A stretch of DNA of 23,270 nt, from IMG/VR virus record IMGVR_UViG_2531839662_000011, one strand, 5' to 3'. Numbering within the stretch: position 1 is the stretch's first letter; each line of letters opens with the position of its first letter. The translations under genes and the position numbers were made by a program. This DNA is from a virus. Its lineage: Duplodnaviria > Heunggongvirae > Uroviricota > Caudoviricetes. Below the pieces are notes generated by a model, which did no database searches, was not told the DNA's origin, and saw only the letters and a list, made by a program, of their open reading frames with translations. Shown here one piece after another: positions 18,809 through 23,270 of the stretch.

Positions 18809-20725
18809 TTATCCTCCACTCAGTGCAGCCGCGATTTCTTCCAGACTCATCTCATCGTCGTCCTGCTCATCTCTTCTGGCACGGGCCAGTGCTTCAAGAT
18901 CCAGCTGCCACCGCTGAACTGAAATACGCAGGGCAGCATAGGCATATACCAGGCAGTCGAGGGCTTCGTTGCGTCGCCCTTTTTTATCCCACAGCAGTTT
19001 CACCCTGCCATTAACCACCTTCTCCACCAGCTCTTCCGCCACGATCTGACGCGCCTCTTCTTCCGAAAAAATGTCGGGGTTATCAGGAAAACGGAAGGTG
19101 TACGGGGCGGCTTCACTGGCAGAGACCACTGGCAGGGCAAAACGGGCGTACAGCATTTCCTTGACGGTATCGGAGCCCACCTCACACAAAAACACACCAC
19201 GCTGGTTGCGCTTTTTGGGCATGGTGATCACCGGCTTGCCGTACACCGATGCCCCTTTTATGGGAAGCACAAAAAAAGTGCCGTGTTTCCTTGAACGCTG
19301 ATACACAATGTCCTGGTCGATACCACCGGTATCCCAGCAGACACGGGAAATGGAAATTTCAGTACCGTCAGCATGACGATATTTTTTCCGGATCACCGTA
19401 TCAACACGTTTAAGGGTGTCCTCGTCTTCCGGTCGCCCCATGATAATTTGCTTATCAATCAGAAAGGCTTCTTCGCCGGGAGCCCAGCCCCAGACATAAA
19501 TTTCATAGCGATCTTTCTGGGAGTCGATCCCGGCGGTCAGGTAAACCACCCGCAGGGGAACCTGCGCACCATAGTGGCAGACCTTTTCCAGTAACAACTC
19601 AAAACTCAGCTTTTCTGCCACAGCCTCTTCATAGGGCTCCCCGAGCGTGGTGTTAATAAACGTCTTGACGCCGTTCGGATCCTTCAGCGCATCCAGCCAG
19701 TCATAAACAATCTGTACCCAGGTGGTGAACGGACTATACGCCGTCCAGATGTGGAAAGTGACGGAGCGCGGCGGTGGCATCTCCTCATCGCCGGCGCTGT
19801 AAAATGCCAGGCCGTCGCGCGTCCACATCCCGGTATTGTCACAAATCCAGCGCCCGTCGGTCTGGTCAAGTTCCGACTGCCGGATCACACAGCCATTATG
19901 TTCACACAGGTAATACACCGTTTCCGGTTTACCCTTCTCCCATTTCAGGCCAAATGGCGTCGCATCATCGCCAAACTTCAGATACTGGGCCTCCCCGCAA
20001 TGAGGGCAAGGGACATAAAACCGCATGAAATGCGCTGATTCATTTGCGGCTTTCTCAATCTGGCAGGAGCCTTTAATTTTTGGCGTTGAGCCACGTATGG
20101 ATTTAGGCCATACCGAGCCTTCGATACGCTTATCGCCAAGCAGCGTCGGCGAACCTTCTTTTTCCACATCCGGTTCAAACGAGGAGAGTTCGTCATAGCA
20201 GACCACATCCACAGATTTTTCACGGTAGTTTTTAGCAGCGGCGCCGCCAAGGCACCAGAAACCCACACCGGAGGAAAAACGCTTCAGGGTGAGTGTATTA
20301 TCGCGGTGCTTTCTTCCGAACCATGGAGCCAGCTCCAGCAATGCAGGAACATCCCTGATCGTTGGCTCAACATGAGATTTCATGAAATCTTCTGCAGCAG
20401 AATCTGTTGGCTGAAAAAGCAGACTGTTACGGGATTTATGCTCAATAAAATAAGCCTCCACCCCCAACAGCATTTTGGTGTAACCAACGCGCGCCGATTT
20501 AATCAGATTAACGGTGCGGATCCGGTCATTTCCCATGCTGTTCATAATGGCAAGCTGAAACGGCAGGGTTTCCCATTGTCCGGGAGTGTATGAAGATTCT
20601 TTCGGCAGATAATAATGTTGATCAGCCCACTGAACCGTCGTCAGTGGAACCGGAATATTGAGAGATAAAAGCCCTGTAGCTATCGCACCGGCTGCATTAG
20701 CTGCCTTCTGTGCGTCTGAAATCAT
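18809..20725 (-). CDS. A: terminase large subunit, lambda gpA-like
   Basis: [56 protein letters not shown] match lambda A; start taken at ATG 20725 (track 20767 also possible). Confidence 0.95.
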
Positions 20726-21245
20726 CAATCCACCTGCCCACGTTTTCACCGGCTTTAGCTGCAACATTGGAGGCTTTCGCGATTTCAGTTTTCACCACAT
20801 CAAGGTGTGACGGTGAAATATCCGGATATTTACGCTGTAATGTCAGCGGCACACGTACAAGTATCCCCGAAATCTCCTGTGCCACACGTTGCAGAATGAA
20901 GGTAAACAATTCTGTTTCCAGCACCAGCCCTTCTTCACGGGCATTTTTCAGCTCCTGTGCGTCAGCCTGTGCTTTGGTTAACCGGTAGCGTTCATAGTCA
21001 ATGGTGCCGGGTTGTAAATCTGATTCTGCAGTCGCACGCAAATCTTCCAGTTCTTTGCGGAGCTTTTCGTTTTCGATATCTTTTTCCCGCTGCGCATACC
21101 ACTCAATGGCTTCTGCAGTATTGAACATGGCTTCGATACCTTTGCCTCCCCCCGACAAAACTCTCAGCCCCTGACTTTGCCAGCCAGTGATTGTTCTGAC
21201 ATCGCACTCAAAAATTTCCGCCAGTTTCTTTTTGTTAACCTTCAC
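20697..21245 (-). CDS. nu1: terminase small subunit, lambda Nu1-like, 182 aa
   Basis: [10 protein letters not shown]...RTI..WQ.QG..VL.GGGKG...ENEKLR.E.E.LR...[26 protein letters not shown] matches lambda Nu1; GTG start. Confidence 0.9.
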
Positions 21246-21440
21246 GGCACATATTCCTCACAAAAAGAAGAAAGGATCTCAAAACGCTTTTTTCAGCGAA
21301 AAATCACCGCTGCCAGATCCTTTCTTTTTTTTAAGAAAACTCTATTAAACAACAGGTTAGCCAGAAGAAGAACGGATCTGCTTTTTCCCTGAAAATTTTC
21401 ATAAATAGCGCGTTTTTGCGCGTCCCCAGACCCTCGGTGT
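21246..21440 (-). promoter_or_regulatory. cos site: cosB with R3/R2/R1-like repeats and cosN candidate
   Basis: revcomp of 21381-21410 has CGCTATTTATGAAAATTTTC identical to lambda; GATCC(G/T)TTCTT repeats at ~21363-21380, 21313-21330 (inverted), 21263-21285; cosN candidate ~21415-21440. Confidence 0.6.
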
Positions 21441-21546
21441 TTCAGGTTCCAGAAAGGACCCGTTGAAATGGGAGTAATTATCATTTACACGCTCTAACAC
21501 CTGCATTATCGCAACCCCTCACACAGAAGGGCTGCTGTAATGCCTG

Positions 21547-21945
21547 TTACTCACGAATCAGGCGAGCACTCTTACCATTCATTTCAATACGCGAATACTG
21601 CGGTTTACCATCAATGATGTCTGTCATCACGAACATCTCACCCGGCTGCAGTTCAACTACTGCGCCTTCCGGCAATTTCATGCAGGCAAATACCGGACAA
21701 CCAGGATGACGATCATCTTCTGTTGCTTCCAGCATTGACTCACCAAACCACTCCGTCGTGGCGCGACCATCAGCTGCTTTGTAGTGGATCAAGTACTGGT
21801 TTTCGCCATCCGCATACTGCGCGCGGGCTTTAACCTCACCCCATTCATCACTGATGCGCATCTCCACCAGTTGAGACAACTCAAACTTAAACGGAGCAGC
21901 ATCAGCACCAATTACAATCGGTTTGCTTTCTGTTTTTTCCATCAT
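21547..21945 (-). CDS. hypothetical protein, 132 aa, between lysis region and cos
   Basis: ATG 21945 or 21942 with AGGAGA SD; protein-like composition; no family recognised. Confidence 0.5.
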   Translation of the reverse strand: MMEKTESKPIVIGADAAPFKFELSQLVEMRISDEWGEVKARAQYADGENQYLIHYKAADGRATTEWFGESMLEATEDDRHPGCPVFACMKLPEGAVVELQPGEMFVMTDIIDGKPQYSRIEMNGKSARLIRE

Positions 21946-22116
21946 CGTCTCCTGATATCAAAGCCCGTCGCCGCACCGGGCACTGATCAACATTTGAGTA
22001 TTCGCGGCGACAGAAAGAATTTATTTTATTGAGTAGCCACAAACACAGAATTTCATGCTTTCCGGACGCTGGCGCACTCTTCATTTTTCAGCAAAATATT
22101 CTGCTCTTACAGGCGA

Positions 22117-22293
22117 TCAGTTCTGCAGACACTGCCGAACACCGTCGACAATTTCACAGACCAGAGAAGCGGTATCGAAAAGCTGGCGCGCTTTATCCAG
22201 GCTGACGCATCCCACCAATAAAAAAGGCACCAGTATCGCTACCCATTTCGCCGCCGTTCGCGGCATTCTGTGTGTCCAGTGTTTTCGCGTCAT
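22117..22293 (-). CDS. small lipoprotein, 58 aa (lipobox LLVGC)
   Basis: Hand-translated MTRKHWTHRMPRTAAKWVAILVPFLLVGCVSLDKARQLF...: basic n-region, hydrophobic core, L-V-G-C lipobox; ATG 1 nt after upstream stop. Confidence 0.4.
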   Translation of the reverse strand: MTRKHWTHRMPRTAAKWVAILVPFLLVGCVSLDKARQLFDTASLVCEIVDGVRQCLQN

Positions 22294-22294
22294 A

Positions 22295-22408
22295 TCACCA
22301 CCAACGCACAGCCCAAATCAGAACAGCGACCGCCACAAGGCGAATTGCAAAGGCCGCAGCCCTTGTCAAATCAAGGCTCGCGGGAGTTTCCACTTCAATA
22401 CCTTTCAT
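22295..22408 (-). CDS. small membrane peptide, 37 aa
   Basis: MKGIEVETPASLDLTRAAAFAIRLVAVAVLIWAVRWW: single C-terminal hydrophobic helix; coupled to lipoprotein ORF; weak SD. Confidence 0.3.
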   Translation of the reverse strand: MKGIEVETPASLDLTRAAAFAIRLVAVAVLIWAVRWW

Positions 22409-22504
22409 AATGGACAACCTCAAAAAGAATCTTTTATACTTTCCCACGAGGATTTTCTCCGTACTCACTACTCACAATTTCCTCTCTGACGTGAAAACTC
22501 AAAA

Positions 22505-22547
22505 CCCCGGACTGTTCCAGCAGCCGGGGTTTGTTTTTTTTATTTAC
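22505..22547. terminator. bidirectional intrinsic terminator
   Basis: Stem CCCCGG(22505-22510)/CCGGGG(22524-22529); TTTGTTTTTTTTATTT on + side, TTTTGAGTTTTC on - side. Confidence 0.5.
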
Positions 22548-22821
22548 TGCCCTGGGTGCGGCATCTGGCTATTTCATTCCTGGCTTTACTGTCACCGCGA
22601 CAGATACAACGCACCGTGTCTCCGGTCAACGTGGTAATGTAAGCCTCATCCTCTTTTTCTACCGGAATACATGGAATATCCCCGCCCCGGCAATACTCAA
22701 TTTTTGCTGCAAGATGAGTGTCACGCGGATAGAACTCCAGACGATACATATCTCCCAGGACATGCACTTCCTCAACCTGGCGACCATCTTCAGTTACGGT
22801 AATTTTTTTCAGTGCGTACAT
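22540..22821 (-). CDS. hypothetical Cys-containing protein, 93 aa
   Basis: In-frame ATG 22821-22819 with GGAGGT 5 nt upstream; track start 22890 (TTG) would run through a terminator hairpin. Confidence 0.45.
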   Translation of the reverse strand: MYALKKITVTEDGRQVEEVHVLGDMYRLEFYPRDTHLAAKIEYCRGGDIPCIPVEKEDEAYITTLTGDTVRCICRGDSKARNEIARCRTQGSK

Positions 22822-22848
22822 ACGTACCTCCGTTCTTTCGTTTTTTGA

Positions 22849-22874
22849 GCAATAAAAAAGCCGCTCATGGCGGC
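22849..22874 (-). terminator. short intrinsic terminator/attenuator after endolysin
   Basis: GC stem GCCGC(22860-22864)/GCGGC(22870-22874), 5-nt loop, then TTTTTTATTG on - strand. Confidence 0.35.
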
Positions 22875-22891
22875 CCTGTATGTTTTGCAAG

Positions 22892-23270
22892 CTATCGCTT
22901 CAATTGAAAATGAGGCCCGTCTTTCAGTGTTTTCCAGTCCCCGCCCCATTCGATGGCAGTTCCCAGCTCTGCGGCAGCCTGCTTAAATGCCTGCGCGATT
23001 TTCTCGTACAGAGGCCAGTCCCATGACACCTGGCTGCCAACCCAGGCCACAACATCCACCGCATCACCGGTCAGGTGGCGGCTGTTCATGGTCTGGCTCT
23101 TGCCTTCTGCAACCGGCGGAGGTAATGCCAGAAATGCCGACACAATATCAACCACCCGATAAAGCTTGAGGTTGCTTTCATGCCCCCCTGCAACGGGTAG
23201 ATTTTGCAGCCTTGCCGCAGCAGTCTGGCGATGTACACCTGACAGTGCCGCCAGTTGACTGATATTCAGC
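22892..23270 (-). CDS. endolysin, peptidase M15 family (T5 Lys-like), N-terminus beyond window
   Basis: SRHLTGDAVDV...FKQAAAELGTAIEWGGDW...DGPHFQL matches T5 endolysin SKHITGDAIDF...FEQAGKELGIKLRFGADW...DGGHVEL; frame open to window edge (no stop 23156-23270). Confidence 0.75.
   Translation of the reverse strand, partial: LNISQLAALSGVHRQTAAARLQNLPVAGGHESNLKLYRVVDIVSAFLALPPPVAEGKSQTMNSRHLTGDAVDVVAWVGSQVSWDWPLYEKIAQAFKQAAAELGTAIEWGGDWKTLKDGPHFQLKR

Follow-up and report, generated by a model that had tools for sequence, protein, structure and literature searches.

An o-spanin-like lipoprotein and an optional small membrane peptide at the end of a lambdoid lysis cassette that lacks a recognizable i-spanin

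The IMG/VR record IMGVR_UViG_2531839662_000011, a caudoviral sequence of 23,270 nt (the whole of which is herein referred to as the window), carries on its minus strand, at the end of the lysis region, a gene for a 37-aa membrane peptide followed directly by a gene for a 58-aa prolipoprotein. An original prediction made from the letters alone had placed two small open reading frames (ORFs) here, separated by a single nucleotide, and both prove to be real genes by their sequence, by their matches to PHROG families and by the purifying selection that acts on them: the ratio of nonsynonymous to synonymous polymorphism (pN/pS) is 0.26 over the 37 codons of the peptide and 0.19 for the lipoprotein frame, the latter calculated from 49 distinct homologous DNA sequences. 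The features of the pair are as follows.

22117..22293, minus strand: 58-aa prolipoprotein (phrog_7528), encoded last in the lysis cassette and resembling an outer-membrane spanin subunit (o-spanin)
22210..22293, minus strand: predicted signal peptide, residues 1–28, with basic n-region MTRKHWTHRMPRTAAKW, 12-residue h-region and lipobox L-V-G
22120..22209, minus strand: predicted mature lipopeptide of 30 aa, CVSLDKARQLFDTASLVCEIVDGVRQCLQN, predicted helical, net charge -1, 0 Pro
22295..22408, minus strand: 37-aa small membrane peptide (phrog_4493), tail-anchored with a single transmembrane domain (TMD), MKGIEVETPASLDLTRAAAFAIRLVAVAVLIWAVRWW
22294..22303, minus strand: coupling junction TGG-TGG-TGA-t, then ATG, formed by the last two Trp codons and the stop of the peptide, TGGTGGTGA
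22418..22421, minus strand: GAGG Shine-Dalgarno-like motif, 9 nt 5' of the peptide ATG

The lipoprotein matches phrog_7528 with its residues 1–58 over a 60-position profile (E = 1.2e-34); this is its sole significant PHROG and is annotated as 'unknown function'. Scans of Pfam (E <= 1), NCBIfam and PADLOC with both peptides and both neighbouring ORFs returned nothing significant. The N-terminus has the form of a lipoprotein signal, with the lipobox L-V-G-C29, Val at position +2 and, further on, Cys46 and Cys55; this signal with its two additional cysteines, as well as the C-terminal hydrophobic helix of the peptide, had been read in the original prediction and is borne out by sequence and hydropathy. 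Across 26 aligned lipoprotein sequences G28 and C29 are invariant, and lipidation is predicted; Cys46 and Cys55 are likewise invariant, divergent homologues included, and are putative disulfide formers. The 30-residue mature part is moderately amphipathic (hydrophobic moment up to 0.67). When the full 23 kb of the window was searched for lipoboxes, the 58-aa lipoprotein was the only ORF to carry one.

Among the 49 homologous sequences, the variable sites of the lipoprotein frame are distributed over codon positions 1, 2 and 3 as 21/14/36, and the remaining frames of the gene show no constraint, which excludes an embedded or overlapping frame for an inner-membrane spanin subunit (i-spanin). The n-region is under the same constraint as the mature part (pN/pS 0.21, and 0.15 for codons 1–9) and in 4 of the 49 variants codon 10 encodes a residue other than Met, from which it follows that the 58/60-aa start is the right one. 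The start given by PGAP, which yields a lipoprotein of 49/51 aa, was rejected on the same grounds as probably truncated, and the start codons originally chosen for both ORFs are supported by the pN/pS of the codons around the alternative starts. The 49-aa form is found on 104 contigs, and records that hold it or the exact peptide are all named hypothetical, putative transmembrane or lipoprotein. The n-region, 17 residues long and basic (RKHWTHRxPRxAAKW), is kept in several divergent homologues; such constraint and retention are unusual for a signal peptide. The window copy is without two h-region residues (A-L) that are present in all 25 homologues aligned; among the loci fetched, this 2-codon deletion is common to the window and ETEC1732.

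A word-indexed search gathered 131 clusters of the lipoprotein family, with a typical length of 60 aa, and all named clusters belong to Enterobacteriaceae (Escherichia, Salmonella, Citrobacter, Cronobacter). The family is encoded in 339 of 5426 complete E. coli genomes and is found in Stx2e and Stx2k converting phages; its plasmid matches are prophage-like stretches only, and no colicin gene lies under the matched stretches of four plasmids. To describe the genomic context, 80 IMG/VR loci were fetched and their neighbours mapped by tblastn. Wherever the upstream DNA sufficed, the lipoprotein comes after Phage_holin_8 (PF16931), Phage_holin_3_7 (PF05449) and an endolysin, the latter being either Peptidase_M15_4 or GH108 with PG_binding_3, and the distance from endolysin to lipoprotein is usually 0–15 nt. 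The commonest layout (~41 of the 80) consists of the M15 stop, 14 nt and the lipoprotein ATG, with no peptide, and in L067 and L188 the ATG of the lipoprotein overlaps with the stop codon of the GH108 gene. A dependence of the lipoprotein on M15-type endolysins was considered and rejected, since GH108 endolysins also precede it.

A profile search of 1.84 billion representatives recovered 22 proteins only, and its divergent matches keep the long basic n-region, the lipobox and two further Cys. All five divergent homologues that were looked up are encoded directly 3' of an endolysin. The genes ahead of the lipoprotein are Phage_holin_3_1 and M15_4 in L182 and L183, Phage_holin_3_1 and GH108 in L185 and L186, the holin_8 and holin_3_7 pair with M15_4 in L184 (a contig with baseplate and sheath genes) and the same holin pair with GH108 in L188 (a Mu-like contig with GemA, Mor and Portal_Mu). 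Cassettes with the lipoprotein thus occur in lambdoid, P27-like, Mu-like and myovirus-like contigs, and the lipoprotein is a conserved last gene of the lysis cassette that moves across phage backbones, holin types and endolysin types. A scan for contigs with the 3TM holin gave 2 loci only and added little diversity.

The position of the pair had originally been described as the one that holds spanins or morons in a lambdoid late operon, and comparison with related cassettes agrees. The holin pair recurs at ~40% identity in mEp390, HK639 and Seifer, where spanin genes lie directly 3' of the endolysin. In mEp390 (gp51/gp52) and HK639 (gp70/gp71), which share the arrangement of Phage_holin_8, Phage_holin_3_7 and endolysin, the slot holds an annotated o-spanin of ~50 aa with two Cys, as in the window lipoprotein, but also a clear 91-aa type II i-spanin (phrog_1026 / phrog_1275 for the two genes), and there is no tblastn match between these spanins and the window lipoprotein; in Seifer it holds a membrane protein and an o-spanin. 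Because the lipoprotein stands in the slot of the i- and o-spanins of related cassettes, its most likely role is in the last step of lysis. Spanins are absent from its own cassettes: tblastn for lambda-type Rz/Rz1, GER2 Rz and mEp390-type spanins gave 0 matches in 158 lipoprotein loci, and apart from the lipoprotein the only lipobox ORF that recurs in these loci is Bor-like and lies on the opposite strand. No spanin is annotated in the complete phage phiSTEC1575-Stx2k, whose only other well-supported lipobox ORF encodes a 141-aa lipoprotein near Q. In the Stx-type phage GER2, Rz/Rz1 is preceded by the 37-aa peptide and the lipoprotein homologue is an unannotated pseudogene with 4 in-frame stops (L088 2980–3180), a hint that the lipoprotein is redundant with spanins.

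Small ORFs downstream of the lipoprotein in divergent loci were considered as i-spanins in reversed order and were rejected as soluble proteins, with one exception in L185. There, a type II membrane protein of 144 aa whose TMD is N-terminal (L185 3461–3895) is encoded ~245 nt 3' of the lipoprotein; it occurs in the L185 lineage only and is the only i-spanin-like candidate near any family member.

One member of the family already bears a published label. Phage phiP27 is listed, from computation only, as encoding a 'separated' two-component spanin (Kongari et al. 2018, BMC Bioinformatics 19:326, PMC6139136), with a combined periplasmic length of 62 residues that is the shortest listed and with both subunits in singleton families (PMC6139136). 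The supplementary coordinates given there map onto locus L002, in which the phiP27 o-spanin is a homologue of the window lipoprotein at 90% identity. It is described as 51 aa long with a periplasmic part of 30 residues, 83% helical (PMC6139136), and so resembles the window lipoprotein in its family, its lipobox, its 30-residue helical mature part and its place 3' of the endolysin; the o-spanin label appears to be a reasonable computational call. The listed i-spanin is a 64-aa ORF with a TTG start (L002 3537–3731, minus strand) that is found neither in the window nor in most cassettes and belongs to no PHROG family, and antisense to it runs a 90-aa ORF (L002 3475–3747, plus strand) that matches phrog_36812 (E = 5e-20). 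For these reasons the listed i-spanin is probably spurious and the family appears to be without an i-spanin, which corrects the published computational spanin call for phiP27.

The 37-aa peptide matches phrog_4493 over residues 1–37 (E = 7.4e-16) and consists of a polar head of 16 residues, one hydrophobic segment (Kyte-Doolittle maximum 2.05 over residues 16–35, 19-residue window) and a tail of 3 residues. A longer, 57-aa form with a GTG start was rejected, as its 20-codon extension has a pN/pS of 0.80, is equally variable at its codon positions and contains a stop in copies that precede Rz. A GGTGGT Shine-Dalgarno-like motif for the downstream gene sits within the final codons of the peptide, and the gap between peptide and lipoprotein is 1 nt (TGA-t-ATG). 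The peptide motif was placed in 79 of the 80 nearest IMG/VR loci, and the gap is 1 nt in every one of these, 75 times before the lipoprotein, twice before truncated copies of it and twice before Rz-like genes. The same junction is found before Rz in other prophages, and the constancy of TGGTGGTGAnATG suggests, from its anatomy, that the peptide is translationally coupled to whichever gene follows.

The peptide is far from restricted to the lipoprotein cassettes. The exact sequence occurs on at least 1000 contigs, and prophages that carry the peptide number in the thousands across E. coli, Shigella and Salmonella, Stx phages included. Slightly different variants of it (...IRIVAIAVLVWAIRWW) lie 1 nt 5' of a lambda-type Rz with embedded Rz1 in Stx-type prophages, in cassettes composed of Phage_holin_2_1 and Phage_lysozyme, and one such variant is found in 2585 blocks of the collection; the interval between rrrQ and rzpQ of K-12 Qin holds no named homologue. 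Conversely, about half of the lipoprotein cassettes among the 80 IMG/VR loci are without the peptide, and an identical lipoprotein is accompanied by it in L015 and unaccompanied in L018. Since it is often absent, since the same lipoprotein occurs with and without it and since it also stands before Rz/Rz1, the peptide is an accessory and neither an obligate partner nor an i-spanin; indeed, with its TMD at the C-terminus and only 3 residues beyond, it cannot be a type II i-spanin. Judged from these comparisons, the peptide is a separate and optional accessory, with a predicted place in the inner membrane, that should be dispensable for lipoprotein function. It is one of a recombining group of small tail-anchored peptides (phrog_4493, 1115, 3246, 4906 and 12997), of which 0–3, the number varying by cassette, lie between the endolysin and the spanin-slot gene. 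The members of phrog_1115, 3246, 4906 and 12997 are 44–50 aa long and were seen at L004 2589–3055, L005 2768–3202 and L055 3662–3996, and P0151 is a chimera of two small tail-anchored peptides.

We hypothesize that the lipoprotein is an o-spanin-like lysis lipoprotein of the outer membrane (OM) that acts without a canonical i-spanin and ends a P27-like/lambdoid late operon, the peptide being an optional addition; this is the interpretation we favor, with moderate confidence. It has the lipobox signal, the location in the lysis cassette and the available periplasmic Cys of an o-spanin. The pair would be transcribed late and in a Q-dependent manner, as suggested by the lack of any detectable minus-strand promoter between a terminator-like hairpin (described below) and the peptide, and its translation would be coupled, with the stop and Trp codons of the peptide carrying the ribosome-binding site of the gene in the spanin slot. 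The lipoprotein would be exported by Sec, processed at Cys29 by Lgt, LspA and Lnt and, following the sorting rules for Val at +2, delivered by Lol to the inner leaflet of the OM, with Cys46 and Cys55 oxidised in the periplasm. Once the endolysin has removed the peptidoglycan, it would breach or destabilise the OM, perhaps directly in the manner of colicin-release or entericidin mini-lipoproteins, perhaps as a disulfide-linked oligomer, or else with a partner from among the holins or the host. The peptide may modulate the timing of lysis or events at the membrane.

Colicin lysis proteins or bacteriocin release proteins (BRPs; PF02402) and entericidin B (PF08085) are lipidated precursors of ~45–52 aa with mature parts of ~27–35 aa, and they permeabilise or lyse the envelope alone, BRPs by way of outer-membrane phospholipase A. 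They appear to be the closest precedent for a stand-alone lytic mini-lipoprotein; however, BRPs are like the window lipoprotein in size and predicted lipidation only, neither PF02402 nor PF08085 gives a match at E <= 1, and two conserved Cys and helical character are not BRP features. Lambda Rz1/Rz (PF06085 / PF03245) offers a parallel of another kind, namely an OM lipoprotein that ends the lysis cassette and has a conserved periplasmic Cys, and the same 37-aa peptide gene can lie ahead of it and of the window lipoprotein. A functional likeness is to disruptin (phiKT gp28), a cationic antimicrobial peptide that replaces spanins in a spanin-less phage (bioRxiv 10.1101/515445) and, as proposed for the lipoprotein, a small protein that disrupts the OM without spanins. 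It is conceivable, though we regard the combined claim as tentative and rather doubtful, that a stand-alone 30-residue lipopeptide constitutes a third kind of OM disruptor besides spanins and disruptin (BRP/entericidin-like or a disulfide oligomer, with no inner-membrane partner) and that the 37-aa peptide is an unrecognised lysis factor acting with the gene that follows it.

Several observations weigh against the o-spanin-like interpretation. The lipoprotein has no homology to Rz1 (PF06085) or to Rz-like spanin PHROGs, no proline-rich region and no embedded i-spanin; the 40-aa mature part of Rz1 holds 10 Pro (PMC6139136), versus 0 here, and the original view that the pair is not a classical Rz/Rz1 holds on both homology and Pro content. 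No cognate i-spanin was found, the peptide having its TMD at the C-terminus and the 158 loci giving no Rz-like matches. The 30 mature residues, with at most 16 more from the peptide, cannot span the periplasm, and together with the missing i-spanin this makes the classical mechanism of spanin fusion inapplicable. The lipoprotein is not a unimolecular spanin either: it has a lipobox, but its C-terminus (...VDGVRQCLQN) is polar and without a TMD. It differs from disruptin in having a lipoprotein signal and a net charge of -1 in place of a cationic character. An AlphaFold2 model shows a single long helix at low confidence (predicted local distance difference test score, pLDDT, 65), and the mutual exclusion of lipoprotein and spanins consists of one pseudogene case plus absent matches. 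A literature search by sequence, accession, orphan o-spanins and Stx2k lysis found no experimental work on the lipoprotein or the peptide. Finally, the pair in E. coli UMNF18, the host strain of the window, lies behind a recombination scar, with a chimeric endolysin remnant, a terminator and a moron upstream, which makes its expression at this particular locus uncertain.

Spanins are regarded as almost universal in the lysis of Gram-negative hosts; ~13–15% of phages are without an identified spanin (PMC6139136; bioRxiv 10.1101/515445). The family offers a compact and testable three-gene cassette of holin, endolysin and 60-aa lipoprotein. If the lipoprotein alone performs the OM step, the accepted need for a membrane-bridging complex would change, and a very small OM-permeabilising module would become available for phage and lysin engineering. 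The peptide, in turn, is an unannotated and highly prevalent gene between R and Rz in Stx-type prophages, in which lysis timing governs toxin release. What was already known is the computed o-spanin label in phiP27; what is new is an o-spanin-like lipoprotein without an i-spanin and a widespread, unstudied peptide coupled to spanin genes.

Other explanations of the pair deserve consideration. A minimal two-component spanin, in which the peptide is the inner-membrane and the lipoprotein the outer subunit and the two fuse the membranes like Rz/Rz1, would account for adjacent, coupled genes in i-then-o order in the spanin slot, and the phiP27 listing of Kongari et al. admits very short spanins (PMC6139136). 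We nevertheless judge it highly unlikely: a C-terminal TMD followed by 3 residues leaves the peptide no periplasmic C-terminal domain, roughly half of the lipoprotein cassettes do without it, as does a copy of an identical lipoprotein, it stands ahead of complete Rz/Rz1 as well, a system in no need of a further subunit, and the combined periplasmic length of <=46 residues falls below any spanin listed (PMC6139136). The unusual spanin pair proposed originally therefore survives for the lipoprotein, given its phiP27 homologue listed as an o-spanin and the context census, whereas the functional pairing fails on the optional occurrence and the wrong topology of the peptide. The lipoprotein could instead be a regulator of lysis that sets its timing, restrains the endolysin or holin, or shields the envelope until triggering. 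Its tight coupling to endolysins of both M15 and GH108 types and the unusually conserved n-region of its signal peptide would suit such a role, and accessory lysis factors are still emerging (e.g., LambdaSo Lcc6). The cassettes would then be without any OM-disruption function, however, and OM sorting as expected from Val at +2 would take the protein away from the holin and the cytoplasmic endolysin, so that we find a regulator unlikely, if worth keeping in view.

A moron of the Bor, Cor or Llp kind, which happens to close the late operon and serves in superinfection exclusion, serum resistance or the masking of receptors, is a distinctly unlikely alternative. Morons are classically found in the interval from the lysis genes to cos, the window pair lies behind a terminator and beside other morons, and small disulfide-containing lipoproteins such as T5 Llp do block receptors. 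But the gene shares its strand with the late genes and, in most relatives, begins 0–15 nt after the endolysin stop or overlaps it, leaving no room for a promoter of its own; no minus-strand promoter was detected upstream in the window; there is no homology to the Bor, Cor or Llp families (no Pfam or NCBIfam match); and the same slot is kept in phages of unrelated backbone whose tails and receptors differ. To the last possibility, that the pair is a small toxin module or that an overlapping ORF on the plus strand is the real gene, we give almost no credence. Small hydrophobic peptides do resemble type I toxins, and the following ORF does exist:

22055..22489, plus strand: 144-aa ORF, an antisense shadow of both minus-strand genes and not a gene, with stops in homologues

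Its frame, however, is interrupted by stops in 45 of 49 homologues and is reduced to 36 aa in phiP27, it has no family match in Pfam, PHROG or NCBIfam, and there are no PADLOC, Pfam or Rfam matches that would indicate a toxin module; the peptide is coupled to lysis genes and not to an antisense RNA or antitoxin. The conservation check, with its broken plus-strand frame and purifying selection on the minus-strand frames, accords with the original suspicion that this ORF is an antisense frame. Neither the exclusion lipoprotein nor the toxin module that had also been proposed finds backing in Pfam, NCBIfam or PADLOC, and both are countered by the lack of a minus-strand promoter and by the coupling to endolysins in relatives.

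The surroundings of the pair in the window are rearranged relative to the minimal cassette, with the following neighbours.

22892..23270, minus strand, continuing past the window edge: chimeric ORF with a DUF1441/Nu1-like N-terminus and an M15 endolysin C-terminus
22540..22821, minus strand: hypothetical protein of 93 aa, rich in Cys (phrog_33497), encoded between the peptide and the endolysin remnant
22505..22532, minus strand: intrinsic-terminator-like hairpin and U-run, 3' of the 93-aa ORF and 5' of the peptide
21547..21945, minus strand: 132-aa hypothetical protein (phrog_1935, E = 1.5e-70)

The window matches E. coli UMNF18, a porcine enterotoxigenic strain, at 100% identity, and of 5426 complete genomes only this one has the right-hand junction of the window. 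The pair had been placed between endolysin and cos, and this is correct as to position; the adjacent 'endolysin' is a chimera, in which ~52 DUF1441/Nu1-like codons run in frame into the 73 final codons of an M15 peptidase gene (the match to M15 endolysin is confined to q53–125, and PGAP names the product a DUF1441 family protein). The intact holin-holin-M15 cassette of UMNF18 lies ~1.5 kb past the window end (L190 4193–4597), and an antisense Ais-like phosphatase moron is located between it and the window. The 93-aa gene occurs in some cassettes only, is missing from the minimal cassette and is marked as frameshifted by PGAP in UMNF18; it is a moron-like insert, with terminator-like hairpins on both sides (22857–22877 and ~22505–22532). 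The hairpin at 22505–22532 has a folding energy of -19.2 kcal/mol, with a z-score of only -1.6. As it lies ahead of the pair, the two genes would be reached by late transcripts only under Q antitermination, and no minus-strand promoter was detected between it and the peptide. On the plus strand, 22411–22440 contains a sigma-70-like promoter match (TGGACA, 18-nt spacer, TATACT; 10/12) that is directed away from the peptide start; sigma-70-like matches in the region are about as many as in shuffled sequence. An Rfam scan of 21200–23270 found nothing. In the ETEC1732 locus, at 99.6% identity to the window, the cassette is uninterrupted save for the 93-aa gene.

On the other side of the pair, the 132-aa gene is followed on the minus strand by the cos region, a Nu1-like small terminase (20697–21245) and the large terminase. 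The 132-aa protein, which has no TMD and no signal peptide, comes after the lipoprotein in many loci, and its C-terminal part recurs on its own as a short PHROG and, in L004, within a truncated pseudogene beside Rz.

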